Source: an uncultured Clostridia bacterium (lineage in GTDB: Bacteria > Bacillota > Clostridia > TANB77 > CAG-508). From it: a stretch of DNA of 64,000 nucleotides. The DNA lies in NCBI GenBank assembly GCA_944386195.1, contig CALXAD010000001.1, positions 7,581 to 71,580 of the forward strand. The letters run 5' to 3'. How positions within the stretch are numbered: the first letter of the stretch is position 1; every line of letters begins with the position of its first letter. The notes under the pieces were generated by a model. That model saw only the letters and a program-made list of their open reading frames with translations, ran no database searches and was not told the origin of the DNA. Below are positions 1,899 through 25,852 of this stretch, piece after piece. Made by a program: the position numbers and the translations under genes.

Positions 1899-3452
1899 CT
1901 ATTTTTTAAATAATCTGCCAAATAGTCCTTTTTCCTGCTTTTCATTCTTCTTACTTTTTTCTTTTCTACTTTCTCTTATTAACTCATCAATTTTTTCTTC
2001 AGTTATTTCTCCATCATCTTCTATAATCTCTTCTTGTTCCTGGTCATCAAATTCATCATCATCATATTCATATTCATCATCATATTCCAAATCTTCATCT
2101 TCATAGTCATCATCTTCGTCATATTCATCGTAATTACTTTCTTCTTCATCATCAAATTCTACATCTTCATAATCATTTTCGTCATCATACTCATAATCAT
2201 CATAATTTTCGCCATTATTATAAATTTCTTCTTTATTTTCATTTTCTATTATTGGATTTTCTTCTTCTATCCTATATTCTGATAAATCTTTTTCAAATTT
2301 TTCGCTTACTTCTTCTTGAAATACATTATATATATTTTTTATTCCTTCTATTCTCCAATAATTAGAGTTTATAACTGTTCCCATATTTATTTTTATATTT
2401 GTTACTTCTTCTTCAAAGTCTCTTTCTTTTTCTTCTATATCTTTTAAATAGTTTTTATTATACAACTCTTTATATGCTTTTTTTGTTGCTTTTTTTGTTG
2501 TTTCTCTTATTAATAATTCATATAATTTATTTATTTGTTCTATATCTAAATCAAAATTTTTGCATGCTTCTTCCATTAATTTATCATGTACTTTTTTACC
2601 ATTCATTGCTGTCATTCTTTCATTATCTAAAAATCCTACTATATATTCTTTTTCAGCATTTAAAAATGATAATTTTACATTTACATCTCTTGCTACTTTT
2701 TCAAATTTTGTAAGTTTTAATGAATCATTATTTACTTCACTTAAAAGTTTTTTCATTTTTTCAAAAATAGTAATATATAATTCAGCTTCTTTTTTAGCAA
2801 TTTTTGTTCTTACTTCAACTGCTTTTTTCATAACTTCTACATTAAATGGTACTCTTTCATTTTTACCATTTTTCAACATTTTATTTACAATATTATTTTT
2901 TTCTTCCTCATTGTCTGAACTCATAAATCTTTTTATATTTTCTATTGCTTTTACATTCATTTCTGAAAATTTAGCACTTATTTCTTTTATTGTATCTAAA
3001 TATTCACTTTCTGTAGTTCTATGAATTCTTGCATATTTATTTCTTTCTTTCTGTCTTTCTGTAAATATAACTATTGCTTTTACATACTTTACCCTTAATT
3101 CTTTTATTTTTTCATTATTTTTATCAAAATTATCTTCTATCTCTTGAAGTTTTTGATCTAAAGTACTTGGATTCTCACTTAAGTCATTAAAAAGATTATT
3201 TCTTTCTTCTTCTAATCTCAAATTTACTTCATGTAATTTATTTTGTGCTTTTTGAATTTGCTCTATTTCTGAAGCTACTTCGTCAAATTTTCCTATTACA
3301 TCATCCTCTTCATTAATAATTCTTTGGTATTCTCCTATTTTTTCTATTAATCTGTTGTAATTTTCGTAATTAGATTTCAAATTATTTTCTTTATTAAAAC
3401 CTAAAACTCCTTCAAAATAACTTTCTAAAACTATTGCACTTCTTTCATACAT
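1899..3452 (-). CDS. Hypothetical coiled-coil protein with a polyacidic D/E/Y tail and a C-terminal amphipathic helix
   Basis: 517-aa ORF, 10 nt upstream of the ABC ATPase gene. It is heptad-like and K/E-rich for about 400 aa, followed by about 100 aa of D/E/Y repeats, and ends EKGLFGRLFKK. Confidence 0.7.
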   Translation of the reverse strand: MYERSAIVLESYFEGVLGFNKENNLKSNYENYNRLIEKIGEYQRIINEEDDVIGKFDEVASEIEQIQKAQNKLHEVNLRLEEERNNLFNDLSENPSTLDQKLQEIEDNFDKNNEKIKELRVKYVKAIVIFTERQKERNKYARIHRTTESEYLDTIKEISAKFSEMNVKAIENIKRFMSSDNEEEKNNIVNKMLKNGKNERVPFNVEVMKKAVEVRTKIAKKEAELYITIFEKMKKLLSEVNNDSLKLTKFEKVARDVNVKLSFLNAEKEYIVGFLDNERMTAMNGKKVHDKLMEEACKNFDLDIEQINKLYELLIRETTKKATKKAYKELYNKNYLKDIEEKERDFEEEVTNIKINMGTVINSNYWRIEGIKNIYNVFQEEVSEKFEKDLSEYRIEEENPIIENENKEEIYNNGENYDDYEYDDENDYEDVEFDDEEESNYDEYDEDDDYEDEDLEYDDEYEYDDDEFDDQEQEEIIEDDGEITEEKIDELIRESRKEKSKKNEKQEKGLFGRLFKK

Positions 3453-3749: not shown

Positions 3750-4712
3750 TTATATAAATTCTTCCTTTTTTAACCCCGTTATTTTTACAATTGTTTCTAT
3801 ATTTATTTTTTCTTTATACATTTTCTTTGCTAAATTTATTGTTTCTTCTTTTCTTCCTATATTCTCATGCATTTTAAATTCTGCATCTATTCTTTCTTTT
3901 ACTGCTAACATATATTCATCTCCTCCTTTATTTAATTCTTTTATTATTTCTTCGATTTCTTCATTTTCCATATTTCCTGATAATGTTATTCTTACTATTT
4001 CATTCATTTGTTCTCTTTCTTCTTTTGTTATTCTTTTAAATACTTCTTTAGCACTTTCTAAAAACTCTTCTATTCCCTTTGATTTTTCCAAATACATTGC
4101 CTTATATAATAGACTTTTACTTTTTAATAATTCTTCTTTAGTATAATTATTTATATCCTCCACTATATAATTTCCTAATGTTTGTATTTCTCTTTCTTCT
4201 GTGTAAAAATCTTCCTGTAATTCCCTTATCTTTGTTTTTGCATTCCATTTTCCTTCTCCTGTATATATTACTGTTGCTAGTACTATTGCCTCTTTTTCTC
4301 CTCTTTTCTTTGCTTCACATGTTCTCATTATTTCTATTTCATAATTTAATATTCTATATGCCATATAATAATCTTTTTTAGTTTGATGTTCTATTAAGAA
4401 AAATATTTTTTTACTTTTTATCTTATATATTATATCTGCTTCTAGTAATCTTCCTCCCTTATTTATAAATTCTTTATCATATACTTCTACTTCCTCTACC
4501 TTTATATTTAAATTAAATTTTCTATTTATAAATTTTACTGCTTCCTCTTTTTTTGATAATATATTTTTAAACATTTTATCGTGTTTTTTGTCTACTTTTG
4601 TTTTACTTTTTTCTAATTGTTCTTCACTTTCTTTTGCTAATTTTTCTATTCTATTTCTTTTTTCTTCATTTTCTACATATTTTAAATAATCTTTATATGT
4701 AAATATATACAT
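3750..4712 (-). CDS. Rpn-family recombination-promoting nuclease / PD-(D/E)XK putative transposase (YhgA-like)
   Basis: Motif block EADIIYKI...FFLIEHQTKKDYYMAYRILNYEIEIM is typical of the Rpn/Transposase_31 family. A paralogue lies at 52714-53805. Confidence 0.8.
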   Translation of the reverse strand: MYIFTYKDYLKYVENEEKRNRIEKLAKESEEQLEKSKTKVDKKHDKMFKNILSKKEEAVKFINRKFNLNIKVEEVEVYDKEFINKGGRLLEADIIYKIKSKKIFFLIEHQTKKDYYMAYRILNYEIEIMRTCEAKKRGEKEAIVLATVIYTGEGKWNAKTKIRELQEDFYTEEREIQTLGNYIVEDINNYTKEELLKSKSLLYKAMYLEKSKGIEEFLESAKEVFKRITKEEREQMNEIVRITLSGNMENEEIEEIIKELNKGGDEYMLAVKERIDAEFKMHENIGRKEETINLAKKMYKEKINIETIVKITGLKKEEFI

Positions 4713-6308: not shown

Positions 6309-7908
6309 TTATTCACTATATTCATCCATTAATTCTTCATAATTATTATTAGTTTTATACATGCTATATCGCTCTCTTCCAAGTGCTGTAAAATATGCTT
6401 GTGCAGCAGCACCACCTTTTTCTGCCATATATTCATATATATTTTCTGGTACATCTACTCCTGTCTGACTAACTACTGATGAATAACATCCCAGTTCATT
6501 ATGTGAATAATAATAATATGTTCCTTCCGTACTAGTTGCAACTGTTTTTCTTTCAAAATCCATATTTAAATATGCACCTGTTACATTTGTTCCGACGTCA
6601 TTATCAGTTGGTTTATGATATTGACCATCAGATGTTATTAAATATATTGAGTCTGTATTTACAACTTCCTCGTTTACTGTATTAGTTACAATTGAATAAC
6701 CATTATAAAGTTTTCCACCAATGCTTAATCCTTGCATAAAACTTATTATAGAAATATTATTTATTATTCTTTCCCATTCATCTTCTTGTAATTTTGGCAT
6801 TTGGAAATTTGCACTTGTGTCTGAAGCATATCTATTATAATTTGCTATTGCTACAGATAAATTTTTTTCAATTGAATAACGTATTATAGCTTGTCTTTGC
6901 ATATTAAAATTAGAATTTGGGTCTTCTATTGATTTGCCAGTTGAAGCACTTTCACTTTCAAATATTTCATAATTTCCTAGACCTTCAATTTGTCTTCCTG
7001 TTACAATATCTCTAGCATCTGCACCTGTTAAATCTCCTAAATTACTTTCAACCCAATTTGTAAAGTCTCTAGCTTGTTGATAATATCTTATTCCTGAATG
7101 GTCTTGTTCACTGATTGTTGATTCTAAAAAGTCTTGTCTTTGACCATTTAAAATTGAAAACCATGTATCACCATCTTTATAATATTTAACTCCATTTATT
7201 CTAACATATGGACAATTTTGAATTTCTCTAAAACTTCCATCTTCTTGTACAAATCCCACATTTTCTGTTAATGTTTCTGATGGAGAAATTCGAACACCTC
7301 TATAACTTATATTATCTCCTGAACCAGTTATGTTTGATGGCTCTATTAAATATCCATATCTATACACTGATTCACCATTTATTACTCCTTGTACTGTTAT
7401 ATAATTATCCAATGAATATGTTATTACAACATCTATACCACCTGTTTGATATCTACAGCTATAAAATATATATGGTTTTAAACCATATATTTTTTCTCCA
7501 TTTTCGTATGTTACTGATTCTTCTTGAGATTCTTCATCAAGTGTATTGGTAAATGGCGAATAAATATAAAATCCATCATACATTGTATAAACAACTGCTG
7601 GGACATAACTCTGCAATATATCTTTATTATATCCGAGCCATATTAAAATTACTAGCCATTGAATTAAAGAATGTATTAACAGATGCTTCTATATCTCTTA
7701 ATTTTGAATTAGCAATATCTGACGTGCTACTATTAAAAGCATTTAATTGGAATGCTTTTAAAGCATCATATGTCGCATTTGTTAATTTAGTATCATATGA
7801 TATTTGTAATTCCAATGTCTTAACTTGATTTTGCACATATGAAGTTAAAACCATAGATATTGGCAACATAATTATAATAAATATTACCGCTAAACTTTGA
7901 TATTTCAT
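6309..7908 (-). CDS. Filament-locus protein with an N-terminal TM anchor. It is a single 532-aa product only if a +1 shift occurs at CGG-A (complement 7633-7635).
   Basis: The 93-aa ORF (7627-7908) ends ...NFNMA-CGG-AUA-UAA. Skipping the C gives GGA UAU AAU AAA GAU AUA UUG... in frame with the 435-aa ORF (6309-7616). That ORF otherwise has only a TTG start and no RBS. Confidence 0.6.
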
Positions 7909-7981
7909 AATTTATTCTTTCCTTTTGTATTAATAAAATTAGCTTGTAATAATAATTATTACAAGCCAAAAAGTAATTTTT

Positions 7982-8524
7982 TTAATTTCCAGCTCCGTTG
8001 GCTGTAACTATGCCAGCATGTTCCGCTGCAATTGTATATGTATCATTTCCTGTTACTGAATAGAAAAAGTTCTTAAGTTGTTGAGATAATGTTGAATTTG
8101 TATTTTTTACACTTGTTGAAAACATATCTCCTTCTTTTAATGCTAATACTTTAGTTCTACCATCAGAACCTGGAGTTATGGAATCCATTATTTGAGATGT
8201 ATACATTGTATAATAAACATTCTCTCCTATTTTAGTAGATGGTGTCTGTGTTGTTTTCTTTCCTGGGTTTTCATCTAGTATTTGAGCTTCCATTTCAACA
8301 TCATAACTGTTTCCAGTTGCTGAAATTTGTTCTACAAATTTACTATATTTATCCATTGAAATTCTTCCTGTAGTTCTTACATCGTCTACAAATTCAGTTG
8401 TTGCAGCTTCTACCGCTAATTGTGATACATCATCTGTCCTATCAGACATTGTCATTAGTGGAAACACAAACATTAAAACTGCAGCCAATACTATAGCTAT
8501 TACTGTAATTAACGTATCTCCCAT
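7982..8524 (-). CDS. Filament-locus protein, N-terminally membrane-anchored (minor pilin/TadE-like role possible)
   Basis: 180 aa. N-terminus is MGDTLITVIAIVLAAVLMFVFPLM. Co-directional and tightly packed in the locus. Confidence 0.55.
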   Translation of the reverse strand: MGDTLITVIAIVLAAVLMFVFPLMTMSDRTDDVSQLAVEAATTEFVDDVRTTGRISMDKYSKFVEQISATGNSYDVEMEAQILDENPGKKTTQTPSTKIGENVYYTMYTSQIMDSITPGSDGRTKVLALKEGDMFSTSVKNTNSTLSQQLKNFFYSVTGNDTYTIAAEHAGIVTANGAGN

Positions 8525-8555
8525 TTTATCCTCCTTACTGGAACTTGTCCAGATT

Positions 8556-9197
8556 TTATAATAATGTATAAGTAATTACTCTTTTAGTTGTTTTATTTGC
8601 ATCTGGAACATCAGACTCTTCATCATCTGATGTAGAATCTTCATCTGAAGTTGCTTCATCTTCATAAAAAATTCCTATATTTTCTTTTACTTTACTCCTT
8701 ATTATTTTATCATAAATTCCCGTATCATTCAAGTATACTCGTGAGATTTTTGCAAAATTCTCTTTAATATCAATAAAATTATCTAATCTGCTACCATAAA
8801 TTAAAGCATTTATAAATTGAAGTCTTTGCTCTTCTGAACCTAATGACTCATTTTGCAAATCTATTGAATTGACAACTTGTCGATTTCCATGCTCATCAGT
8901 TGCAGTATATACACCATCATCACCTATATTTTCAAATACTATTTTATAATGTTCTTTATATGCTTTATATATAGATGGTATAACTGTTTCTATTCCCACT
9001 ATTCTCTCAGTTGATACATTTCCATCTGCATCTGTATTTTCTTCTACATAAGTATAATCATATTCTTTATCTTGATAATTTAAAATTGTTTCTGCAGTAA
9101 TTCTGGCTTCTCCAAAGGCATTGATACTTATGGATAATGCCAAAACAAATATTAAAACTGCTGCTGCCATTTGTAAAGCTTCTGCTGCATTTTCCAT
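8556..9197 (-). CDS. Pilin-like protein, MENAAEAL-type N-terminus
   Basis: 213 aa. MENAAEALQMAAAVLIFVLALSISINAF followed by a soluble domain with an acidic S/D/E C-terminus. Confidence 0.65.
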   Translation of the reverse strand: MENAAEALQMAAAVLIFVLALSISINAFGEARITAETILNYQDKEYDYTYVEENTDADGNVSTERIVGIETVIPSIYKAYKEHYKIVFENIGDDGVYTATDEHGNRQVVNSIDLQNESLGSEEQRLQFINALIYGSRLDNFIDIKENFAKISRVYLNDTGIYDKIIRSKVKENIGIFYEDEATSDEDSTSDDEESDVPDANKTTKRVITYTLL

Positions 9198-9214
9198 AAA
9201 TATCTACCTCCCTT

Positions 9215-9634
9215 CTAACTACCACTATTTTCGGTTATTGTAATTTCACTAATTAATCCACCTTCTGTATAATCTGTTGCTTCTACTTTATATGTTGAAC
9301 CTGATTTAGCTCCTTTTTTATAGTTTCCTGCTGATGCTGTAGCACCATCTGTAATAGCACTATCTCCTTTAAGTGTAATTTGTTCTGTTGAGTCATCTGT
9401 TGACATATTATTTGTATTTACTGCGCTTACTAATGCGTTAACATTTACTCCTCTTATTTTATCTCCCAAATATTGGTCAAATTTTCCATTAAATGATGTT
9501 ACTTGTACTTCTGTCATTGAATTATTGTTTACTACTCCTGCTGCTTGATTATAAATCATTATTCCTAATGATATAATTAAAATTGCAAGTAATATTGCAC
9601 CTGCGATTATTAATGCTTTTGACGCATTTTCCAT
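9215..9634 (-). CDS. Pilin-like protein (candidate major subunit, copy 1), MENASKAL-type N-terminus
   Basis: 139 aa. MENASKALIIAGAILLAILIISLGIMIY. About 90% identical to the next gene. RBS is AAAGGAGGA. Confidence 0.75.
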   Translation of the reverse strand: MENASKALIIAGAILLAILIISLGIMIYNQAAGVVNNNSMTEVQVTSFNGKFDQYLGDKIRGVNVNALVSAVNTNNMSTDDSTEQITLKGDSAITDGATASAGNYKKGAKSGSTYKVEATDYTEGGLISEITITENSGS

Positions 9635-9669
9635 AATAATATCCTCCTTTAAAATTTTATTTAATTATA

Positions 9670-10083
9670 CTAAGTATTTTCAGTTATTTTTATTTCACTA
9701 ATTAATCCACCTTGTGTATATTTTGTCACTTCTACTTTATATGTTGAACCTGTTTTAGCTCCTTTTTTATAATTTCCTGATGATGCTGTAGCACCTTCTG
9801 TAATAGCTGTATCTCCTGTAAGTGTAATTTGTTCTGTTGAGTCATCTGTTGACATATTATTTGTATTTACTGCACTTACTAATGCATTAACATTTGCTCC
9901 TCTTATTTTATCTCCCAAATATTGGTCAAATTTTCCATTAAATGATGTTACTTGTACCTCTGTCATTGAATTATTGTTTACTACTCCTGATGCTTGATTA
10001 TAAATCATTATTCCTAATGATATAATTAAAATTGCAAGTAATATTGCACCTGCGATAATTAATGCTTTTGACGCATTTTCCAT
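9670..10083 (-). CDS. Pilin-like protein (candidate major subunit, copy 2), MENASKAL-type N-terminus
   Basis: The track ORF extends to 10125. An internal ATG at 10083 is preceded by AAGGAGGG and gives a 137-aa protein colinear with copy 1. Confidence 0.75.
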   Translation of the reverse strand: MENASKALIIAGAILLAILIISLGIMIYNQASGVVNNNSMTEVQVTSFNGKFDQYLGDKIRGANVNALVSAVNTNNMSTDDSTEQITLTGDTAITEGATASSGNYKKGAKTGSTYKVEVTKYTQGGLISEIKITENT

Positions 10084-10167
10084 AATAATACCCTCCTTAT
10101 ATTTTTTACTTTTGTTTTTATTCATATACCAATTATTATTGGTAATTTTAATAACTAATTTAAAAAT

Positions 10168-10605
10168 TTATTCTGTAATTTGTTCTATTAACATGTATTT
10201 AACTTTTTGAGTTTTTTTATGATATTCTATCTTTGTGCATTTAAATTTTATATTATTATAATATTTAGCAAATTTGTCCATTCCTCCACTATAAAGAGTC
10301 TCCATATCATAAGTTTTATCTGTATCTAGCATTTTTAAATCAATTTTAATTGATGTTGTTTCATTTTCAATAAATTTTCCTTTATCATCTTTTTGGACAC
10401 TATTTGTTAAATTATTATCATAAGCTTTATTTACAATTGTTACAACATCAGCTCCATAAAATTCTTCGTTATAATAGCTTTCAAATTGATTATTTTCCCT
10501 TTGAGCCTCATGATAATTTGCTTTATAATTTAAATACATATAAGAAATTCCTACTATAATAATTACTATTATTAAGAAAAATATTGCTATTTTCTTCATT
10601 TTCAT
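10168..10605 (-). CDS. Filament-locus protein with TM anchor; shares a C-terminal motif with the pilin-like paralogues
   Basis: 145 aa. N-terminus is MKMKKIAIFFLIIVIIIVGISYMYL. The C-terminal IKFKCTKIEYHKKTQKVKYMLIE resembles FDCTNVEYNNQTGRIVKMEF of the 250-aa paralogue. Confidence 0.6.
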   Translation of the reverse strand: MKMKKIAIFFLIIVIIIVGISYMYLNYKANYHEAQRENNQFESYYNEEFYGADVVTIVNKAYDNNLTNSVQKDDKGKFIENETTSIKIDLKMLDTDKTYDMETLYSGGMDKFAKYYNNIKFKCTKIEYHKKTQKVKYMLIEQITE

Positions 10606-10613
10606 TTCCTCAT

Positions 10614-11114
10614 CTAATCATTTCTTGTAAACTGTACAACACTTACTCTTTCTGTATTTGGATTTATAGTCACACTACATTTATACGTTGGTAATGCTTG
10701 ATATGTACTTCCATCTTCATCAGTATATGATACTTGAGGCTCATTTCTCAAAAGATTTTGCATATCTTCATCAGACATTTTTTCTAAATGTGTTTCTGAG
10801 CCACCTGACCCTATACCTGTAGCATTGACTGTTACATAGAAATTGCCATCTGTTTGGCTTGTAAGTTCATATTCAGTATTATTCTCTTTAGCCAAATTTG
10901 CAACAGTAACAATATCATATATTGTAACACTATTTTTAGCTTCATATTGAGTAAATTGTGTATTAAATTGATTTATTCTATCGGCATCATTTTGCTTATG
11001 CAGTTCAGCAGAAGTTGCACCAAATGTTGCAAATAAATATACTGCTAAAGATAATACTAATAATCCTATTAAAACTCCTGCTGCCATAAGTAAAGCCTTT
11101 GATGCATTTTCCAT
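10614..11114 (-). CDS. Pilin-like protein, MENASKAL-type N-terminus
   Basis: 166 aa. MENASKALLMAAGVLIGLLVLSLAVYLF. Confidence 0.7.
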   Translation of the reverse strand: MENASKALLMAAGVLIGLLVLSLAVYLFATFGATSAELHKQNDADRINQFNTQFTQYEAKNSVTIYDIVTVANLAKENNTEYELTSQTDGNFYVTVNATGIGSGGSETHLEKMSDEDMQNLLRNEPQVSYTDEDGSTYQALPTYKCSVTINPNTERVSVVQFTRND

Positions 11115-11127
11115 ATTCTAACTCCTA

Positions 11128-11880
11128 CTAATTAAATTTTCCATTTGATTTGAATTCCATTTTTACAATTCTGCCTGTTTGATTATTATATTCTACATTT
11201 GTACAATCAAAATATAATCTTTTAAATTGTATATATTCATAGTAAGTATAAACATCTTCTCTAATTGTGCTATCTTGGGCAATATCTTCCCATTCTTCTA
11301 CTTCTACTTTTTTAGATGCTGAATTAAATTTAGAAATTGCATCTTGTTTTGCACTATCACTACTTGTATCATCAATAAATATTGCTGTTAAAGCTGTTGT
11401 TAAATTTGCTAATGAATCAGAACCATATTCACTTTCTAACTCATTTATTTTATCTTTTATTTCATCTTCAAATTTATTAGTAGTTTTATCTATTGTATAA
11501 CTACTACTTCTTATAAGTCTTTTTTCTCCATCAGCACTTAACTGATTCAAATCATCATTAGTCATTGTAAAAGTTATTGTCATAGGTTCAAAAGCAAGTT
11601 CTGAACCTCTATCTGTACTTCCAGTTCCTTCTGTTGATTGTCTTCTATTATAATCTATTACTTTATTTAATAAAGAATATAAATCACTACCTCTAACATT
11701 TTTTCTATCATATGTATCATATTGGTTATTAAATTCTACAATTTGTGAAGAACGTGTTCCTTCAACATTAGTTTTTTGATAACTTGATAAGCTATTAAAC
11801 ATTAATATTAATGCCCCTATTATCAATAATGCTATTAATACACTTCCTGCCATTATGAGTGCTTTTGATGCATTTTCCAT
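11128..11880 (-). CDS. Pilin-like protein, MENASKAL-type N-terminus
   Basis: 250 aa. MENASKALIMAGSVLIALLIIGALILMF. Confidence 0.7.
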   Translation of the reverse strand: MENASKALIMAGSVLIALLIIGALILMFNSLSSYQKTNVEGTRSSQIVEFNNQYDTYDRKNVRGSDLYSLLNKVIDYNRRQSTEGTGSTDRGSELAFEPMTITFTMTNDDLNQLSADGEKRLIRSSSYTIDKTTNKFEDEIKDKINELESEYGSDSLANLTTALTAIFIDDTSSDSAKQDAISKFNSASKKVEVEEWEDIAQDSTIREDVYTYYEYIQFKRLYFDCTNVEYNNQTGRIVKMEFKSNGKFN

Positions 11881-11904
11881 AAACTAATCCTCCTTAAAGT
11901 TCAA

Positions 11905-13986
11905 TTAAGATGCTGATGAAGAAGTCATTGTCTGGAATGATGATGACATACTTGTTAGACCTATAAATACTAAAGGTACAATTAAATATCCAACAAACAT
12001 ACATACCATTGGTGCAAAACCAATTACTTTTCCTATCATTCCTTTTCTCTTTATTAATCTTTCATTTGATTCTTTTCTCTTTTCTTGATAGTAATCTCTT
12101 TCTGAATCTAACTCATCAAAAGCGTCTCTAATTGGTATTTTCTCTACTGCTGCTTGTAAACTTTCAATTATCCTAATTAAAGGTAAATATGTAACTTCAT
12201 CTTTCATTTGTTCTAGTGCTTCCCATGCACCAGATTCATAGTTATTAACACATTTTGAAATTGGTGTCTTGAATATATTTGAGTATCTTTCTAGCCATTC
12301 TAGAATCATTTCAACATTTACTCTTTCAATTCTCATAAGCATCATTATAATTGTTTGGAATTGCATTACTTCATCTTCCATCTCTAACTGTCTCATCTTA
12401 ACTTGGAAATATAAAATCCAAATTGGTGCCATATAACCAATAACTGCAAATACACACGCTAGTAATAATTCAAACCATTGTAAATATTCACTATTAACTA
12501 TTTGTAACTTATTATATATTCTTTCTGCTGCAGCATCTATATCTGCATCTTCTGCATCTGCATAATAGTCTAAATCTTCCACTGCCATTCTAATTTGATC
12601 TTGTGTTGTATTTATTTTTCCCCTAAATCTATCCAAAATTTTATTGTCCTGTTCAGTTACTTCCATTGCTTTTTCTTCATCTTTTTCCGATAAACCTCCT
12701 ATAATATCATAATCGGTTGTCGGCTCTGTATAAACATAGTTAATTGCCACTTGATGCAATTGTGTAAAAATTATAATTGATGCAAAAAATGTAACTATTG
12801 CTAAACCAATTCTATTTATATAAAGCCACTGTATTTTTTGTGATGAAGCTGCATCTTTTAATAATTTTGTAATCTTTCTACGTTCTTTTGTTCCATCTTT
12901 TGGTATAAATAAATCAACAATTTTCTTGATTGGTTTCTTTTTATATAATCTCTCTTGCCATGGATTTTCTGTATCTTTGGTATTCATTGCAGTTGAACCA
13001 TTATCTTTCAATTTTCTAACTAATATGTATGATACAAAAGTTAGTATAAGTATAATTATTTGTACTATCATTCCAGGTTTTCCTAAATACCAACTAGCTG
13101 TAAATGAGAAATTTGATATAGACCAACTTTTTAATGGTTCTAGTAATAATACTGGTGCAATTGAAATTACTGACAAACTTTGAAATACATAGTTTAATTT
13201 ATCTCTTTTTAAAATTTCAAGTTGCATTTCTTGAGTTATATTGTTAACATTCTTTAAATATAAAGATGCACCATCTACTTTTCTATCACCAAATTCTTTA
13301 GTTAAATATGATATACCAGCAAATTCTTTTAAGAAGCTATTTGGTGCTACATCATAATATTTTTCTAGTTCCATTTCAGGGTCATCTGAAATTAATATTT
13401 CGTATATTTTTTCACCTTGTCTTGAAATTTCCTTTTCATCATCTTGAGATACCTGATATATTGCTTCCTCAACCATATTGTACTCGTGGTAAGCATGTCT
13501 TATTTCTGAAAAGAAATCTATTTGCTCTTTTAATATTTTATTATCTATTTTATCAACAGAACCATCAATAAATGTATCAATCATAAATAATTCAAATATT
13601 AATAATATAAACATAAGTAAATAATTGCTAGATGTAAGAATCAACGTAACAAGCATAATCGGAATTATTATTGCAAATGATTTTGTTAAAATTTTTGCTG
13701 TTCCTTTTCTTGTGTTATATTCATCATCAATATTTATAATTTCTAGTCTTCTTCTTATTTTCAACACATATCTTTTTATAAAAGGAATCTTTATATATGT
13801 AAGATATAATTTTTGAAATAATATTTCTGTTGAAAAGCTTTTTTGTTTAGTACCTTGTTGTAAACGTTGAATTCTCTTATATTCAGAGGTTTGCATCTTT
13901 TTAGATAAAATTACATAAATAAGTATTATAATAACAAATGCTGCTCCTGCACCGCCCATTATATAATAAATCATTTGATTATCCAC
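11905..13986 (-). CDS. Polytopic inner-membrane protein, candidate TadB/TadC-like (GspF-type) platform
   Basis: 693 aa with multiple hydrophobic helices separated by large cytoplasmic-looking segments. It lies immediately downstream of the secretion ATPase. Family assignment is by position only. Confidence 0.5.
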   Translation of the reverse strand: MDNQMIYYIMGGAGAAFVIIILIYVILSKKMQTSEYKRIQRLQQGTKQKSFSTEILFQKLYLTYIKIPFIKRYVLKIRRRLEIINIDDEYNTRKGTAKILTKSFAIIIPIMLVTLILTSSNYLLMFILLIFELFMIDTFIDGSVDKIDNKILKEQIDFFSEIRHAYHEYNMVEEAIYQVSQDDEKEISRQGEKIYEILISDDPEMELEKYYDVAPNSFLKEFAGISYLTKEFGDRKVDGASLYLKNVNNITQEMQLEILKRDKLNYVFQSLSVISIAPVLLLEPLKSWSISNFSFTASWYLGKPGMIVQIIILILTFVSYILVRKLKDNGSTAMNTKDTENPWQERLYKKKPIKKIVDLFIPKDGTKERRKITKLLKDAASSQKIQWLYINRIGLAIVTFFASIIIFTQLHQVAINYVYTEPTTDYDIIGGLSEKDEEKAMEVTEQDNKILDRFRGKINTTQDQIRMAVEDLDYYADAEDADIDAAAERIYNKLQIVNSEYLQWFELLLACVFAVIGYMAPIWILYFQVKMRQLEMEDEVMQFQTIIMMLMRIERVNVEMILEWLERYSNIFKTPISKCVNNYESGAWEALEQMKDEVTYLPLIRIIESLQAAVEKIPIRDAFDELDSERDYYQEKRKESNERLIKRKGMIGKVIGFAPMVCMFVGYLIVPLVFIGLTSMSSSFQTMTSSSAS

Positions 13987-14003
13987 TTAAGATAGCACCT
14001 CCT

Positions 14004-15974
14004 TTATACTTCTGTTTTTTTCTTTCTTCCTCTTTTTTTTGCTTTATCATCTTGTACTGCTGATACTTCAACTGTTTCTTTTTCTAGTTTATTTCCCCAA
14101 TGTCTCTCAACGAACTTATCAAATGCTTCAACATCTGATGCATCCATGTTCATTCTCATTTCTCTTAAGTTGTTTTCTGTTATTGGATTTGTTATTTTAT
14201 ATTCGCCATCCACATATTCTAATATATTTCTATATGTATATAATTTTTTATCTGTAACTTTTTCAAAATAATGTGTTGCATTATCGAAAAATTTATCAAA
14301 TTTGCCTTCCAATGTTTTTTCTTTTCTATAGTCAAATGTATATTCATTTTTTTCTTCTACTGGTATACATTCTGTTATTCTTTCTACATATCTTTTTCCT
14401 CTAAAGTCTTTTGTTAAATGTATATCAAAGTTTAATACTTGTACAACTTGCTCTTCTGCTGTTTTCTCATTATTGAATTGTCCAATTCTAAGCATTGAGT
14501 TTCTAAGTGCTGTTACTAAGTTTGGAAATGTCTTAGCATGGTGTGTAAATAATGTAAATTTTGATGCAACCTGTGCAGCTTGTATCATCCAAGCAGCAAC
14601 GTGGTCTGTTGCAACCTCACCAATGATATTTACAGAACCATCTGTTTTCTTTTGAACGTCCAAACCTTCCTGTCCAGAAATTGTCTCTGTTTCTCTAAAT
14701 GTTAAAATGTTTCTTGTTGGGTATATTTTTCTTAAGTGAAGCTCGAATGCTGTCTCTTGAACCCTTATGTTCATTGTTTCGTAAATATTTTCTATCATAC
14801 CCATTAGCATTGTTGTTTTACCACAACCTTGCTCACCAGTGATTGATATAATCCTTGCTCCTTTAACTAAATATTTTAATAATTCGATTGATTCATCACT
14901 ACCTGGCTCTCCTTTAAACCATTGCTCCAAAGTTGAACGTTTAACGTCGAACTTTCTTACAAAGAATGCCCATGTCTCTGACATACTCGGTCTAACAACA
15001 ACGACACGAGAACCATCTTTCATTTCATTTATTTTATAACCATTTGTGTCTGATAATTGTCCTGGGTTATTATATTTATAAATATTTTGACAAACTCTTT
15101 TTAATTCAGCTTCAGTTCCAAATGAAAGGAATGCTAAACGTATAGATTTACCTTGGAAGAATATCCAAATACTATCACAAGCTCTTGGTACTTTATGCTC
15201 TTGAATTTGATTTAAGTAATCTCCACCATCTGTTTGTGCTACTTGGCTTAAGAAACTTTCAGGAAGTCCTGAAACACCACCTGAAACACCATCTATATTC
15301 ATATCTCTTACTTCATCTATACTACTATATCCTTTATATTGTTGATATATCCTTTGTACAACTACATTTAATTTATCAGAAAATGATAATACAACATTTT
15401 CTTTTTCAAATATACTTTCTATCTCATCTGATGTTATTACATAACAAGGTTTTGTTTCACCTTCGACATATTTTAATTCTGCTAAGTTATATTTTTTTAT
15501 TAGCTCTGTCAAAGCTTCATAACCAAATTCTTTCTTATAAACACAAATTAAAATATCAAATTTATCCTGTGCTGTAAGTAATGATGGAATATCAAAAGGA
15601 ATTGCTTTTGATATATTTGTCTCTGTTACACCATATTCTTTTTCTAATAAATCATATATTAATTCTTTTACATATCTTTTATCATTTACATCTCCATATG
15701 TACAACCTTTTAGGGCTTTTTTCAATTCATATTTCTTGTTTTTTCTTCTTTTTAATTCTTCTTCTGATAGCCCTATATCATATAGATTTATTTTTGTGAT
15801 TTCATCTAATCTTTTCTTAACAAATTCAATCATCATCTCTATGGTATAAGTTTTATCATCTACATTTATTTTCTCTTCTACTTGTGCATTTTTCTTTTTC
15901 TTTATGATGTAAAAAACTGTATATCCAGCAACAAGTAACACAACAATTGTTAGTAGAATATTTGTTATTGTCAT
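14004..15974 (-). CDS. CpaF/TadA (VirB11-superfamily) secretion ATPase with an N-terminal TM helix
   Basis: Walker A ITGEQGCGKTT, ETAFELHL box, IIGEV (Walker B/Asp-box region) and His-box-like TLFTHHAKT. N-terminus is MTITNILLTIVVLLVAGYTVFYIIKKKK. The C-terminal tail is Lys-rich. Confidence 0.85.
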   Translation of the reverse strand: MTITNILLTIVVLLVAGYTVFYIIKKKKNAQVEEKINVDDKTYTIEMMIEFVKKRLDEITKINLYDIGLSEEELKRRKNKKYELKKALKGCTYGDVNDKRYVKELIYDLLEKEYGVTETNISKAIPFDIPSLLTAQDKFDILICVYKKEFGYEALTELIKKYNLAELKYVEGETKPCYVITSDEIESIFEKENVVLSFSDKLNVVVQRIYQQYKGYSSIDEVRDMNIDGVSGGVSGLPESFLSQVAQTDGGDYLNQIQEHKVPRACDSIWIFFQGKSIRLAFLSFGTEAELKRVCQNIYKYNNPGQLSDTNGYKINEMKDGSRVVVVRPSMSETWAFFVRKFDVKRSTLEQWFKGEPGSDESIELLKYLVKGARIISITGEQGCGKTTMLMGMIENIYETMNIRVQETAFELHLRKIYPTRNILTFRETETISGQEGLDVQKKTDGSVNIIGEVATDHVAAWMIQAAQVASKFTLFTHHAKTFPNLVTALRNSMLRIGQFNNEKTAEEQVVQVLNFDIHLTKDFRGKRYVERITECIPVEEKNEYTFDYRKEKTLEGKFDKFFDNATHYFEKVTDKKLYTYRNILEYVDGEYKITNPITENNLREMRMNMDASDVEAFDKFVERHWGNKLEKETVEVSAVQDDKAKKRGRKKKTEV

Positions 15975-15990
15975 GTTTTTTCCACCCTCC

Positions 15991-16827
15991 TTACCTCTTC
16001 ATAGCTAGGTCTTGTAATCTATAAATAATATTGTCTGATGTTCTTTTTATCTCTGACATAAAAAACGCATTTCTGTCTTCTTCATCTATTTTTCTAAGTC
16101 TTAAGAATAAATCTGGTAATTTTGCTTCTTCACATGATTCAAAAAACAATGTATTATATGGTATAGTTGAAACTTTATTCTTTTCATTCATATATCTAGA
16201 AATATTCTTTATTGTATATTTTGAATATTTATCATATCTTCCTATTAATAATAATGTTTTCTTAGAATTCAATATTGGCATTTGTTCTCTCAAATTCATA
16301 AAATTGTTTATACTAGATAATCTTTGGCTTAAAGTTGCTACTATTAAATTAGAATTATTTAAAATTGTTTCTATAAGCTGTTCTCCTAATTCAGCATCTA
16401 AATCAACAAATACTAAATCATAATAATTGTTAGCTAAATTTATCATGTCAGGATAATATTGTTTTATTTCATCATATTCCAACTTTTCGCCTTTGAATGT
16501 TGGTAATATTTCCAATCTATCTTTAAAAACAATTTTAGTATAATTAGTTATTTGTTCTGGTGAAAGCTTATTACTTTTTATTATAGTCTCTAGTCCTACT
16601 ACACCTTCTTCCATTGCAGTATTGGTATTTGGTCCAAATAGTCCTAAATTTTTCTTTACTTTTCTTTCCTCCCAGAAACAACGGTCTAAAGTTTTATCTT
16701 TATATCCTGTAGAAACCACTAAAATTTTATAATTATGTTCGATTGCCATATGTGTGACAATTGCAGCTATTGCTGATGTCTTGCCTGTTTCTTCTCTACT
16801 ATTATTCCAAAATGTTATAACTGACAT
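15991..16827 (-). CDS. MinD/ParA-fold protein with a deviant P-loop (TadZ/CpaE-like)
   Basis: 278 aa. ITFWNNSREETGKTS replaces KGGxGKT. Walker B-like YDLVFVDLD. Confidence 0.6.
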   Translation of the reverse strand: MSVITFWNNSREETGKTSAIAAIVTHMAIEHNYKILVVSTGYKDKTLDRCFWEERKVKKNLGLFGPNTNTAMEEGVVGLETIIKSNKLSPEQITNYTKIVFKDRLEILPTFKGEKLEYDEIKQYYPDMINLANNYYDLVFVDLDAELGEQLIETILNNSNLIVATLSQRLSSINNFMNLREQMPILNSKKTLLLIGRYDKYSKYTIKNISRYMNEKNKVSTIPYNTLFFESCEEAKLPDLFLRLRKIDEEDRNAFFMSEIKRTSDNIIYRLQDLAMKR

Positions 16828-16829
16828 TT

Positions 16830-17549
16830 TTACGCTCCTTTTTCTATTGTTTTTATTGCCCTTCTAACTTTAGAATCTCCAGCATCTCCTAAAATTTCTT
16901 GGGCTAAATATGCTAATCCATCTTTATATTGTACACTTAATTTTTTCAATTTTATTTTAGATACTCTTTGATTTTCATATATAGCACTTAAATCTCCATT
17001 CTCAATTGGGAAATATACTCTATAATCATCCCAAATTATTTTATATCCTAGAGATAAGAAATTTAAATAATCGTCTTCTTCTTTTAACATATCTTTTGAA
17101 AATAGTACTTTGGTTAAAGTTATAGCATTTCTAAGTCCTGTAAAAACTTCTAAACCCTTTTTTAGTGAATACACATCGAAAGAAGTTATAAAATAGTTTT
17201 TTTGTGCATTCTCTAAGTCATAATTTTCAAAACCTTCTGGAGTATCTGTATCTACAAACATAAAGTCATACTCCATCTCTTGCCCATCTGAAATTCCTAA
17301 ATATCTTCTTATTCCTTCTTCATTTGCAAACCCTACAGCTATATCGATTTCTTCATATTCTGTGACATACATCATAGTAGGGTTTATAACAGGAACAATA
17401 TATCTTGCTTTTTGGTTTAGTGTAGCATCTACAACTAATACTTTTTTTCCTAATATAGTTAATATTTTGGCAATATATATAATTAAATCTGTTTTATCGT
17501 AAGCACCTATAAACCCTATTTTTTTCATGATATTCTCCTTTCTACTCAT
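16830..17549 (-). CDS. MinD/ParA-fold protein lacking a Walker A lysine (TadZ/CpaE-like, probable pseudo-ATPase)
   Basis: 239 aa. KKIGFIGAYDKTD occupies the P-loop position, followed by KKVLVVDA and YDFMFVDTD. The start may be the internal MKKIGF. Confidence 0.55.
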   Translation of the reverse strand: MSRKENIMKKIGFIGAYDKTDLIIYIAKILTILGKKVLVVDATLNQKARYIVPVINPTMMYVTEYEEIDIAVGFANEEGIRRYLGISDGQEMEYDFMFVDTDTPEGFENYDLENAQKNYFITSFDVYSLKKGLEVFTGLRNAITLTKVLFSKDMLKEEDDYLNFLSLGYKIIWDDYRVYFPIENGDLSAIYENQRVSKIKLKKLSVQYKDGLAYLAQEILGDAGDSKVRRAIKTIEKGA

Positions 17550-18642
17550 CCGTAGTTGTTGTTCCTGATAATCCTTCTAAGTAATCTTTTCTTGCATTCT
17601 TAGAATTTGTAATACTTTCTTCTATATTCGTTTGTAAATTTGATTCTGCTTGATCTCCTTGGCTTTCTATTTCACTATTTATATTATTTCTTGTTTCCCC
17701 ACTATTTACTTGATTATATCTTGCAACAATTTGATCCATTGCATTTTGTAATATGTTAGGGTCTCTTTGTAATAATTGTGAATTTTCTGCACTAACAATA
17801 TATGTTGGTGTAGCAGCATTTTGCATTCCTGGTTCTGTATATTTAGTTGCATAAAATTTTGCTCCATTAATTCTTGCTGCATCCATTATAGCAGAGCTCA
17901 TATGTAGGATTTCATCTTCTGATAAATTTACCCAAATTGTATCTTCTGAATCTGTACCTCCTACAACTGGAATTTCAACTTCTTTTTTAGATACAACTAT
18001 AAAATCTTGTCCATTTGGAAGCATCAATCTTATATCAATATAATCTCCAGTTGCTAAATCCATAGGTAAAATAACTACATTGTATTCTTGTTTTCTTATA
18101 TCATCTTGCACAACACTATCTCCTCTACTAATTAAATCTGTAGTTATCAATGTGTTTGCATACATATTAACTTTTGCAACAATTGGAACTGTATCTAATT
18201 CTAGATACTCTCTTTCGCCATTTTGTTCAATATAAAGATTTCCTGTTCCCTCATCTTCATTAACTTGATATCTAGTATTATCTATTGTTATATACATTAT
18301 TGGATTTCCATTATTATATTCTGTTACAATCTGATTTCCTTCTTTATCTTGCAATGCATAATTTTCAATAACACTTATATCACTCGTAGCATTACTTGGT
18401 ACTAATGTTTTATTTACGGTTGTTTTTGTTAACATGTCACTTGTTATAACTTGTCCTGATTTAACATCTTGATTTAGCACATAAGCATTTACACTATTTG
18501 CTAAATTTTCTTTTTCTTCTTGAATTTTATTCATTAATTGCATTAATAATATCGCTATAATTACTCCTGCAATAAGTAACATTACTAGCATTCCTAGTAA
18601 AAATGAGTTTCTTGCTTTTCTTTGCATTGGATTTGTTGCCAT
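17542..18642 (-). CDS. CpaB/RcpC-like pilus assembly protein (TM anchor plus SAF-like domain)
   Basis: 366 aa with an N-terminal TM segment, then VLNQDVKSGQVITSDMLT, typical of the SAF domain of CpaB. It is the first gene of the locus. Confidence 0.7.
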   Translation of the reverse strand: MATNPMQRKARNSFLLGMLVMLLIAGVIIAILLMQLMNKIQEEKENLANSVNAYVLNQDVKSGQVITSDMLTKTTVNKTLVPSNATSDISVIENYALQDKEGNQIVTEYNNGNPIMYITIDNTRYQVNEDEGTGNLYIEQNGEREYLELDTVPIVAKVNMYANTLITTDLISRGDSVVQDDIRKQEYNVVILPMDLATGDYIDIRLMLPNGQDFIVVSKKEVEIPVVGGTDSEDTIWVNLSEDEILHMSSAIMDAARINGAKFYATKYTEPGMQNAATPTYIVSAENSQLLQRDPNILQNAMDQIVARYNQVNSGETRNNINSEIESQGDQAESNLQTNIEESITNSKNARKDYLEGLSGTTTTDE

Positions 18643-24327: not shown

Positions 24328-25196
24328 TTAATATATTTTATTATAATTACTATTGCTTTTTATAACATCGACTATTTCCATTAGCTCTTTCACTGTATCT
24401 TCATAACTAATATCTTTTGCATAACTAAACTTGCCTTGATAGTTTTTCCAATGTTCTTTTAAAGCTTCACTTTCTTTTATAACTTCCACTATTTCATCTA
24501 TATTATTTAATTTATCAACAGAGCCTCTATACTCAAATTTCTTTATAATAGCTTGTTTTAACGATTTCTTATCAAAATTCTTCTGTTGTGTTGTCCATAA
24601 AATATAAATATCATAAAAATCTCTTGCTCTTGTAGTATCAACATTTCTAGATATAATTGTTTCAAATTTATCTGCAATTACAGTTTCCATATTATAAGCA
24701 AGTATCTCTATAGAACGCTCTTCAAACAACAAATCAAATTTGTATTTTATTTCTTTTGGAGTAATAACATCTCCTGTTGTTATATCTAGTTTCATAGGTA
24801 CAACTAACTTATCAAACTTGGCATCTAATGATACTCTGTATCCACCATATTCATCTTCTTGTCTTATTTCTTTTATTCCTCTAAATTCAAAAGTTACACC
24901 ATCATCTAAATCAATATTAAAAATTTCATTTAATATATTTTCTAAGTTGTCTTTTCTAAGTCAAAACCTTTTATTGTTGCATCCATATCTAGTGTATTTC
25001 TCATATCTATTCCAACTATAGTTGTTATTAGCATTCCACCTTTTAATATAAATTTATATTTATATTCTGATACAGCAATTCTTTCCAATAGCCTCTCTAG
25101 CATATAATTTTGTAGAATTATATTTTCATTCACATCAACTTTTGCTGACATATTTTTTATCCATGCTTTTAGTTGTGCTCTATTTTTAGCTATCAT
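24328..25196 (-). pseudogene. AbiEii/AbiGii-family nucleotidyltransferase toxin (type IV TA / abortive infection), frameshifted
   Basis: The 84-aa ORF (LKGGMLITTIVGIDMRNTLDMDATIKG) and the 155-aa ORF (MKLDITTGDVITP...) are the two halves of AbiEii. The connecting segment (ENILNEIFNIDLDDGVTFEFRGIKEIRQEDEYGGYRVSLDAKFDKLVVP) is open in the second frame. The frames swap within GAAAAG at about 24951-24956. Confidence 0.8.
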
Positions 25197-25786
25197 AGCA
25201 AAACCTCCAGATATTTTCTCAGTTCATCTTCAATATTAAATATTTTTGCATATTTATGCAATTTAATAGAATCTCTATCTTTTCTATCAGCATATCTTTT
25301 CATTGCGTCTGTAAATAAAGCTATTTCAATTTTCTTTTTATTTCTTATAATATCACATATTGTTCTTTCTAAATCATAGACTTTTACTTTATTTCCATAA
25401 GGCGTTTTTATTTCTGTAATACCTATTTCATATAGTTCTTCTTTCAAATAAAAAAATTGATAGTTTTTATTTTTTATTAATATGTTATTATAATTAGTTG
25501 GTACTGTTAATTGATATTTTATAGGTGTTCTATCGCATAAATCATGAAAATATAAAGCTGTTTCATGAGAGAATATACCTTTTTTACATATAGCTTGTGT
25601 TATAAAATATGTATCTTCTAGTGTATCTACACTTATATAAACACCTCTTGCAACTCTTTCAATTATCCCTCTTTCAATCATCCTTGTTAGAATTCTACTG
25701 TTAATTCCTAATTCTTCAACTTCTCTTGTTGTTATAATTCCATTTTTCTTATTTAATAATTTTTCAATTTTTTTAATATTATCCAT
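25193..25786 (-). CDS. AbiEi-family antitoxin / transcriptional regulator
   Basis: MDNIKKIEKLLNKKNGIITTREVEELGINSRILTRMIERGIIERVARGVYI (wHTH). RBS is AAAGGAGAA, and there is an ATGA overlap with the toxin. The track ORF's upstream extension merely reads through the operator palindrome. Confidence 0.8.
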   Translation of the reverse strand: MDNIKKIEKLLNKKNGIITTREVEELGINSRILTRMIERGIIERVARGVYISVDTLEDTYFITQAICKKGIFSHETALYFHDLCDRTPIKYQLTVPTNYNNILIKNKNYQFFYLKEELYEIGITEIKTPYGNKVKVYDLERTICDIIRNKKKIEIALFTDAMKRYADRKDRDSIKLHKYAKIFNIEDELRKYLEVLL

Positions 25787-25802
25787 CTCTATTTTTTCTC
25801 CT

Positions 25803-25852
25803 TTGTCGGAAATCTTCGTAAATATTATATCATTTACGAAGATTTCCGACAA
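25803..25852 (-). promoter_or_regulatory. Perfect 21-bp inverted repeat with an embedded promoter (putative AbiEi operator)
   Basis: TTGTCGGAAATCTTCGTAAAT-N8-ATTTACGAAGATTTCCGACAA. On the minus strand, -35 TTGTCG (25847-25852) lies in the upstream arm and TGaTATAAT (-10 at 25824-29) in the loop, with a 17-nt spacer. Confidence 0.7.

Follow-up and report, generated by a model that had tools for sequence, protein, structure and literature searches.

We asked what kind of filament machine is encoded by thirteen closely spaced genes (g1 to g13) of an uncultured Clostridia bacterium of the order TANB77, and how the pilins of this machine reach their mature form. The genes lie at 6309-18642 of the 64,000-nucleotide (nt) stretch of DNA analyzed here (contig CALXAD010000001.1; hereafter the window), are all on the minus strand and are transcribed from 18642 to 6309 with intergenic gaps of -8 to ~84 nt. 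The locus is probably a pilus cluster that TANB77 carries on its chromosome and inherits vertically; the encoded filament machine would be Tad-like (related to type IVc) but very divergent, and would belong to a cell of Gram-positive type. A preliminary description of this DNA had proposed a type IV filament locus, Tad-like and with pilin paralogues, and the proposal is borne out by the CpaF-like g4, the SAF/CpaB-like g1, the pilin shape of an AlphaFold2 (AF2) model and a match to a published cluster. Every gene named in that description was recovered in place on the minus strand.

The locus is not new. It is the TANB77 pilus gene cluster published by Kim et al. (2024; Nat Commun 15:10726, PMC11680825), as matched by gene order, protein sizes, host type and annotations, and the suggestion of an undescribed Firmicute branch made in the preliminary description is thereby superseded. 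The published stretch of 10-14 genes is kept in 122 of 129 TANB77 species, and its proteins 927-938 comprise 358, 231, 280, 640, 693, 165, 170, 143, 146, 237, 178, and 621 amino acids (aa). Gene order, the near-equal sizes (including the 693-aa protein with eight helices), the low-GC uncultured gut Clostridia host and the role assignments are shared with the window, while the window has five pilins opening with M-E-N-A (MENA-type pilins) as compared to about four in the paper, and a frameshifted orthologue of protein 938. Based on AlphaFold2 and Foldseek, the published proteins were assigned to CpaB, TadZ, CpaE, and TadA/CpaF, with the remaining proteins termed "pilin-like"; in the 693-aa, eight-helix protein the first half was assigned to TadC and the second half to TadB, and the N-terminal quarter of protein 938 was found to be TadE/PilV-like (PMC11680825). 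In recombinant form, 938 was shown to activate dendritic cells through TLR4 and to make anti-PD-1 responses in mice better, separate promoters were predicted for several of the pilin genes, and the cluster was termed exclusive to TANB77 (PMC11680825). A prepilin peptidase, the pilin N-terminal motif, archaea, sporulation, and relatives outside TANB77 are not mentioned in that paper, and later papers mentioning TANB77 pilins are, judging from their titles and abstracts, apparently only reviews or unrelated studies. What goes beyond the published account is the wider distribution of the machine, the peptidase observation, and a pilin N-terminus that matches neither Flp nor the strict [KR][GA] rule.

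In order to find relatives of g4, one genome per GTDB species was scanned. At least 589 genomes were positive, and the best 80 of these are referred to below as the 80 related loci. All 80 genomes are metagenome-assembled genomes of uncultured gut Clostridia, among them Clostridium sp. CAG:389 and Clostridium sp. 26_22, and the order HAD-g1...g13-spoIVB is kept in nearly all of these species-level genomes. Since this order is kept almost throughout, the locus appears to be vertically inherited and chromosomal, and not a mobile island. In the window a Cof-type HAD hydrolase gene is located upstream of the locus and spoIVB (PF05580, E 3.5e-87) directly downstream, as described earlier, although the gap is 57 nt instead of 58 nt. 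The features of the locus are listed below in the order of transcription.

g1, 17542-18642, minus strand: 366 aa; N-terminal membrane anchor and SAF domain; CpaB/RcpC-like; orthologue of TANB77 protein 927
g2, 16830-17549, minus strand: 239 aa; ParA/MinD-like with a degenerate P-loop (GAYDKTD); TadZ-like; orthologue of protein 928
g3, 15991-16827, minus strand: 278 aa; second ParA/MinD/Get3-like protein, keeps TGKTS (EETGKTS); CpaE-like; orthologue of protein 929
g4, 14004-15974, minus strand: 656 aa; CpaF/TadA-like secretion ATPase; N-terminal transmembrane helix and family-specific N-domain of ~260 aa
g5, 11905-13986, minus strand: 693 aa; eight predicted transmembrane helices; putative platform protein, fused TadC/TadB-like; orthologue of protein 931
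g6, 11128-11880, minus strand: 250 aa; MENASKAL pilin paralogue; minor pilin candidate
g7, 10614-11114, minus strand: 166 aa; MENASKAL pilin paralogue
g8, 10168-10605, minus strand: 145 aa; N-anchored accessory protein (MKMKKIAIFF...), TANB77-specific part of the module
g9, 9670-10083, minus strand: 137 aa from an internal start; MENASKAL; tandem near-duplicate of g10; major pilin candidate
g10, 9215-9634, minus strand: 139 aa; MENASKAL; major pilin candidate
g11, 8556-9197, minus strand: 213 aa; MENAAEAL paralogue, acidic at position 6
g12, 7982-8524, minus strand: 180 aa (MGDTLITVIAIVLAAVLMFVFPL...); N-anchored core component family-wide; pseudopilin candidate
Terminator-like hairpin, 7939-7969, minus strand: located between g12 and g13; 14-bp stem, then a T run
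g13, 6309-7908, minus strand: ~530 aa; N-terminal anchor and large C-terminal domain; orthologue of "pilin 938"; frameshifted into two open reading frames (ORFs)

Among the 80 related loci, g1 is kept in 76, g3 in all 80, and g8 in 75; g8 is absent from the nine-gene core found in Bacillales. Homologues of g12 were identified on the plasmids pTHECO01 (34% identity) and pBsph (28%), and in metagenome loci. The hairpin between g12 and g13 suggests that expression of g13 may be partly uncoupled from the remaining cluster. In g13 itself, one inserted nucleotide near 7635-7636 breaks the gene into ORFs of 93 aa (7627-7908) and 435 aa (6309-7616), a point on which the preliminary description needs correcting. 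DNA alignment places the extra base at 7627-7640, where the window reads TGGCTCGGAT and four close relatives have TGGC-AGGAT, and in relatives g13 is one unbroken ORF of 533-749 aa. The two ORFs are thus a single frameshifted gene, and the frameshift would be either an assembly error or a genuine pseudogene in this strain.

Machine proteins and their putative mechanism

All 13 proteins were scanned against Pfam and NCBIfam, and apart from SAF in g1 (22.6 bits; gathering score 21) only sub-threshold matches were observed. g1 matched the CpaB model TIGR03177 with an E-value of 1.7e-6, which is under the cutoff of that model, and the plasmid relatives of g1 are annotated as "SAF domain-containing protein". 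No Pfam or NCBIfam match was obtained for g2, g3, g5, or any of the small proteins. Profile comparisons showed weak similarity of g2 to MinD (4v02, E 0.053) and of g3 to Get3 (E 0.013) and ParA (3ea0, E 0.039); structural similarity of the g2 orthologue to TadZ has been reported (PMC11680825).

Compared with the structures in PDB, the best matches of g4 are all CpaF (8rkd and others; E 1.5e-8, residues 275-541), and no archaeal FlaI or GspE2 structure was matched at E <= 0.01; an archaeal affinity of this ATPase is not supported. The Walker A motif (GEQGCGKTT) is intact, as are the Asp-box-like, Walker B, and His-box-like motifs. With 23.5 bits g4 falls just under the gathering score of Pfam T2SSE (24.9), and its best NCBIfam model is TIGR03819, "TadA family conjugal transfer-associated ATPase" (E 2.7e-9, far below the equivalog cutoff); the VirB11 model TIGR02788 and the TrbB model gave E-values of 9e-3 and 4.6e-5, respectively. 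By sequence, g4 is placed in the TadA/CpaF family at the level of a family neighborhood and not at equivalog level. ATPases of type IV filaments are usually soluble, and membrane anchoring is unusual among them. g4 has an N-terminal transmembrane helix (MTITNILLTIVVLLVAGYTVFYII), which is also seen in the pTHECO01 relative, and one transmembrane helix is listed for the published protein 930 (PMC11680825).

g5 contains eight hydrophobic segments, and its AF2 model is all-helical (predicted local distance difference test, pLDDT, 84; predicted template modeling score, pTM, 0.75). Using hhalign, residues 152-328 of g5 were aligned to a small TadB alignment (E 1.8e-4, probability 48%) and residues 506-682 to a small TadC alignment (E 5.8e-3, probability 6%), each half being co-linear with the T2SSF part of TadB or TadC. 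These alignments are suggestive, not strong, indications that the two halves may be related to TadB and TadC. A sequence-profile search of g5 against PDB gave no match, and AFDB Foldseek matches of the 693-aa protein to TadC and TadB have been reported (PMC11680825).

From homology and gene content the following mechanism can be outlined. g4, anchored in the membrane through its own N-terminal helix, would work as a hexameric ATPase of CpaF type and drive g5, the putative platform, which would lift membrane-embedded pilins from the bilayer and add them to the growing filament. The TadZ/CpaE-like g2 and g3 may scaffold or position the machine, and the SAF/CpaB/RcpC-like g1 may form a conduit outside the membrane. 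The major pilin would be made up of g9 and g10, with g6, g7, and g11 as candidate minor pilins sharing a common N-terminal helix, while g12 and g13 are possible core pseudopilin or tip components and g8 a presumed lineage-specific accessory protein. The filament is likely to function in surface adhesion or host interaction in the gut.

The known bacterial Tad/Flp systems (CpaF/TadA, TadB/TadC, TadZ/CpaE, CpaB/RcpC, Flp, TadE/F/G, and TadV) share with the locus a set of roles in similar order, and CpaF is the closest solved ATPase. The locus differs from these systems by having pilins of 130-250 aa with a globular head, as compared to 50-80 aa for Flp, by the lack of both the G/XXXXEY motif and a basic leader in these pilins, and by the lack of a tadV gene in the window. 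Further differences are the platform, which is one fused ~690-aa protein of its own family undetected by Pfam T2SSF, the transmembrane helix and private N-domain of the ATPase, and a pair of ParA-like proteins where Tad systems have a single TadZ. Archaeal type IV pili (Epd/Aap-like) share with the locus a short N-terminal segment followed by a hydrophobic helix, the absence of Glu(+5), and globular-headed pilins. In contrast to the archaeal pili, the pilins of the locus have no conserved [KR] at -2 and an acidic or neutral N-terminus, no solved archaeal ATPase is as close to g4 as bacterial CpaF, and the CpaB- and ParA-like partners are features of bacterial Tad systems.

Several observations weigh against a Tad-like filament. 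TANB77 is uncultured and the filament is predicted from its genes, and most of the core proteins score under the thresholds of curated families. None of 38 members of the g5 family matches Pfam T2SSF, and hhalign of the N-terminal half of g5 against the C-terminal half revealed neither an internal repeat nor mutual similarity. With g5 as the profile, 1186 clusters at 50% identity were recovered, 669 of them at E <= 1e-30; with so few, the profile evidently falls short of the far larger canonical T2SSF families. Foldseek searches of PDB with the AF2 models of the g10 pilin and of g5 gave no match at E <= 0.001.

Pilin N-termini and maturation

The five genes g6, g7, g9, g10, and g11 open with M-E-N-A-(S/A)-(K/E)-A-L, with start codons at 11880, 11114, 10083, 9634, and 9197, respectively. 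At the DNA level, M-E-N-A-x-x-A-L was matched five times in the window, always at these gene starts, and was not observed in 100 shuffles. Since a Shine-Dalgarno sequence is in addition found at each start, the MENA openings are not due to chance. The Shine-Dalgarno sequences (AAGGAGG, TAGGAG, or GGGAGG) are located 7-9 nt upstream, and the start codons are firm because a strong ribosome-binding site precedes each of them. In the preliminary description g9 was given as the long ORF 9670-10125. Its true start is most probably the internal methionine at 10083, since the upstream extension overlaps the ribosome-binding site (AAGGAGG ahead of the internal ATG), and the long form would be an artifact of ORF calling. 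A weak match of the long form to the archaeal family DUF515 (E 4e-4, below cutoff) spans this spurious N-terminal extension together with the N-terminal part of g9 and was disregarded.

The AF2 model of g10 (pLDDT 83) consists of an N-terminal helix of 36 residues (2-37) and a small alpha/beta head, and as modeled it has the general shape of a pilin. Of the 7251 homologues of g10, the 120 listed are without a Pfam domain, save one (P0186) with an unrelated PF00590 match. The N-terminal 16 residues of g10 are near-invariant across 36 sequences, 14 of the 16 fully so, and g9 is nearly identical to g10 in the alignment of the paralogues.

M1, E2, N3, A4, A7, L8, A11, L15, and L19 are common to the five paralogues. 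In the 80 related loci we identified 288 ORFs with an M-E-N-A-x-x-A-L start, two to six per locus, in which position 5 is S, A, T, or V and position 6 is K, E, D, R, or N. The N-terminus of the MENA pilins is neutral or acidic, without a basic leader, Gly(-1), or Glu(+5). As Gly(-1) and E-Y are both missing, the absence of both the Flp motif G/XXXXEY and the G/FxxxE motif noted in the preliminary description is confirmed. The family-wide core reads x-N-A-x-x-[AG]-[LI] and has 1-5 variable residues ahead of it, and the pilin starts of relatives include MGENARKAL, MSTNASKAL, MNNASSAL, MSNAQKAL, MGSNATSGL, MPGQSSSEGL, MAAVGDNSSDGL, MDNAQKAI, MEENAFKAI, and MDYMSNKAL. Removal of the initial methionine by methionine aminopeptidase was considered as a rule setting the length ahead of the core. 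This fits MENASKAL, MGENARKAL, MSTNASKAL, MNNASSAL, and MGSNATSGL, but is broken by MSNAQKAL and MGNAQKAL, and the rule was dropped.

No gene of A24 type or similar to FlaK/PibD was identified in the 64-kb window, in which nearly all ORFs of >=150 aa were scanned (the few exceptions being near the window ends), in agreement with the preliminary description. Among the coding-strand ORFs of >=100 aa, only g5, a DedA/VTT protein, and an M50 peptidase have three or more hydrophobic segments. The last of these, an M50-family membrane peptidase (SpoIVFB/RseP-like, 244 aa; window 36427-38065) whose gene adjoins a HipA_C-like kinase gene, is the window's single membrane peptidase and does not belong to the prepilin peptidases. 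The remaining scanned ORFs belong to housekeeping, toxin-antitoxin, or transposase-like families or have no match. A prepilin peptidase gene was seen in none of ~170 related loci from several lineages. For ~8 plasmid and chromosomal relatives this refers to GenBank annotation or precomputed Pfam matches, and in the other ~160 loci the search covered only homologues of genes in the window.

The positions of lowest entropy in the MENA pilins (4, 7, 8, 11, and 15) show a helical periodicity that runs through the putative K-A|L site, and the least variable residues (A4, A7, L8, A11, L15, and L19) have a helical spacing that places them on a single face across the proposed cleavage site. Such conservation of one face would be expected if residues 2-8 start the assembly helix. 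Canonical Firmicute Tad pilins, as encoded on pB6464 and pCLK, are 57-77 aa in length and have basic leaders (..RKG|SSE.. and ..KKGG|LSQ..). Because the MENA starts are firm, the helix face spans the site, the related loci inspected show no peptidase gene, and these canonical leaders differ clearly, we lean slightly towards the view that the conserved first eight residues are kept in the mature pilin, where they would begin the assembly helix, and are not a leader that is removed; the sequence alone is insufficient to decide between cleavage and no cleavage.

Cleavage would be explained if the 7-residue N-terminus were an archaeal-type class III signal peptide, cut after K-A by an A24/FlaK-like peptidase encoded elsewhere, with the locus as an Epd-like or archaeal-like branch. 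We regard this as possible but doubtful. Counting for it, and against retention of the N-terminus, [AG]7-[LI]8, well conserved across the family, could serve as the site of a prepilin peptidase, K is found at -2 in most TANB77 paralogues, and the length ahead of the core varies among relatives in a leader-like manner, with some Paenibacillaceae having 1-5 extra residues that end in Gly before the core (MG|, MPG|, and MAAVG|). Canonical Firmicute Tad pilins are likewise cut at KG| or GG| ahead of L or S. The canonical Firmicute Tad loci on the plasmids pB6464 and pCLK are also without an annotated peptidase nearby, and the absence of a peptidase from the locus is therefore weak evidence. However, Lys at -2 is not a rule, as position 6 varies across the 288 orthologues and paralogues, and the archaeal class III pattern [KR][GA] favored in the preliminary description does not hold, the -2 residue being E or D in g11 orthologues and S, E, or D in Paenibacillaceae relatives. 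The segment is neutral or acidic rather than basic, it is the most conserved part of the pilin, and M-E-N-A does not vary among the five paralogue groups or across hundreds of species, an unusual constancy for a leader that is discarded. The conserved helix face spanning the site, the match of g4 to bacterial CpaF and, at E <= 0.01, to none of the archaeal FlaI or GspE2 structures, and the lack of a prepilin peptidase in the window also argue against an archaeal-type signal peptide.

With retention of the N-terminus as the slightly favored reading, a bolder proposal can tentatively be made. The MENA proteins may be leaderless type IV pilins, whose N-terminus is final as made (trimmed at most by deformylase or methionine aminopeptidase) and which would be assembled by a Bacillota-wide, peptidase-independent machine forming a separate clade beside Tad. 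Such a clade would be marked by head-bearing pilins, an ATPase anchored in the membrane, and a fused platform family of its own (~1,200 clusters at 50% identity), and would extend over TANB77, the second gut lineage described below, Paenibacillaceae, and large plasmids.

Relatives in other Bacillota and alternative functions

Plasmid relatives were identified by tblastn of g4 and g5. Full-length relatives, 37-58% identical to g4 and 22-41% identical to g5, are present on large plasmids of Thermobacillus composti, Cohnella, Paenibacillus, Alkalihalophilus, Cytobacillus, Sporosarcina, and Lysinibacillus sphaericus (pBsph), as well as Butyrivibrio proteoclasticus, Clostridium argentinense, C. beijerinckii, and C. 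botulinum. Many of the copies in Paenibacillus, Saccharibacillus, and Tumebacillus are chromosomal. Canonical CpaF aligns with no more than the C-terminal 42% of g4, at ~26% identity, and is separated from the full-length relatives by a clean gap. The gene order on the plasmids is a SAF protein, two small proteins, the ATPase, a ~680-aa hypothetical protein, one or two pilin-like proteins, a g12-like, and a g13-like protein. This nine-gene core is a distinct and sizeable module of the Bacillota that is annotated everywhere as hypothetical.

In the plasmid modules of pTHECO01, pBsph, pPPM1a, pCY186, and C. botulinum p12/29, g1-g5, the pilin, g12, and g13 have homologues in the same order, g4 being 38-58% and g5 24-40% identical, and the pilin starts are related (e.g., MSTNASKAL, MGENARKAL, and MNNASSAL). 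The modules differ from the TANB77 cluster in having one or two pilins only, followed by SLH and giant DUF5704 proteins and GGDEF or HD proteins, and some are located near replication, relaxase, or coupling-protein genes. Without exception, genes for an SLH- or stalk-domain protein and a DUF5704 giant of 1000-1200 aa come after the module in the Bacillales relatives, often with a GGDEF and/or HD-domain protein next to these (L081 19069-23914; L082 15566-19939; L085 17824-21970; L088 12860-17478). The SLH, DUF5704, and GGDEF neighbors hint at a cell-wall-anchored partner or cargo and at control by cyclic di-GMP. Literature searches on DUF5704, and on pXO16, Tad, and conjugation, gave nothing relevant. 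In C. botulinum p12/29 a cell-wall hydrolase gene follows the pilin gene and a signal peptidase I gene (lepB) is located ~8 kb downstream (L083 18226-18987 and 25931-26419), and in Butyrivibrio pCY186 NlpC/P60 and cell-wall hydrolase genes are located just upstream of the module (L084 5162-6938). A phage origin was rejected, with only two weak partial matches to the ATPase in phage records.

A second low-GC (27-32%) gut lineage was observed in metagenome contigs (L113, L116, L129, L131, L137, L151, L153, L155, L164, and L166), with a g4 ~60% and a g5 ~41% identical to those of the window. These loci are without HAD and spoIVB neighbors and have more, and different, pilin-like genes (MDNAQKAI, MEENAFKAI, MDYMSNKAL, and others). 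This second lineage contradicts the published exclusivity of the cluster to TANB77 among gut bacteria.

The occurrence of relatives on large plasmids of Bacillales and Clostridia could point to a mating or DNA-transfer apparatus, such as a conjugative thin pilus or a machine similar to a type IV secretion system (T4SS). The pTHECO01 module is located ~8 kb from genes for a T4SS coupling protein and a replication-relaxation protein, a relaxase-like gene is found near the pPPM1a module, cell-wall hydrolase genes lie within or beside the C. botulinum and Butyrivibrio modules, and the best NCBIfam model for g4 is named after conjugal transfer. We nevertheless consider DNA transfer very unlikely. 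In the window and the 80 related genomes the locus has housekeeping flanks (HAD hydrolase, hpf, recO, and era; spoIVB), neither VirB4, VirD4, nor a relaxase was identified in the window or in the 80 syntenic loci, and all 35 plasmids with a g5 homologue were typed as non-mobilizable. Chromosomal copies in Saccharibacillus and Paenibacillus are housekeeping-flanked as well. As to the T4SS relationship that the preliminary description had held up as a possible objection, the ATPase stands apart from VirB11 (E 9e-3 for TIGR02788 versus 2.7e-9 for the TadA-type model) and the chromosomal flanks are without T4SS genes, whereas some plasmid relatives do lie near coupling-protein or relaxase-like genes.

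A short pseudopilus or secretion piston, similar to a type II secretion system or to Com and serving protein export or DNA uptake across the wall, is also unlikely. The many minor-pilin-like paralogues, as compared to a simple Tad locus, would fit such a piston, and the SLH-domain and giant DUF5704 proteins that follow the Bacillales modules could be its cargo. On the other hand, the duplicated small pilin g9/g10 resembles an abundant major subunit, the TANB77 locus contains no ComEA/ComEC-like or cargo gene, and the closest solved ATPase is CpaF, the motor of a Tad pilus. Least probable of all is a filament associated with sporulation or the spore surface, a role raised in the preliminary description. 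spoIVB is directly downstream in 63 of the 80 related loci, and a simple scan revealed no terminator-like site between g13 and spoIVB. This adjacency is, however, specific to the TANB77 order; the Paenibacillaceae, plasmid, and second-gut-lineage members are without spoIVB or other sporulation neighbors, and conserved synteny in a reduced genome is no evidence of co-function. The sporulation link is not supported, and a Tad-like surface filament remains the probable reading of the locus.

Surroundings and significance

Elsewhere in the window, an AbiEii toxin/AbiEi antitoxin pair (type IV toxin-antitoxin) is located at 24328-25888, the toxin ORF covering only the C-terminal part of the AbiEii model. 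Two YhgA/Rpn-like (Transposase_31) genes are found at 3750-4712 and 52714-53805, one of them just downstream of spoIVB. A T-box leader (52346-52573; 100.5 bits) is located upstream of pheS/pheT (50811-51830 and 48023-50443). The plus strand contains only two large genes, a VWA-domain gene (55816-57171, 451 aa) and an ORF of 343 aa (29112-30143). The latter is without a significant Pfam match, as are the ORFs at 39736-41613 (625 aa), 54410-55414 (334 aa), and 1899-3452 (517 aa).

The cluster is already of medical interest through the TLR4 stimulation and anti-PD-1 benefit of "pilin 938" (PMC11680825), and claims of its exclusivity to TANB77 need to be qualified. Homologous modules in cultivable Paenibacillus, Lysinibacillus, Butyrivibrio, and Clostridium make the machine open to genetics even though TANB77 is uncultured. 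The N-termini of the pilins agree with none of the known prepilin signals, and the remaining interest lies in the maturation of these proteins, which can be tested in the cultivable bacteria. If the MENA pilins are assembled without cleavage, this would break the rule that every type IV filament needs a class III signal peptidase.

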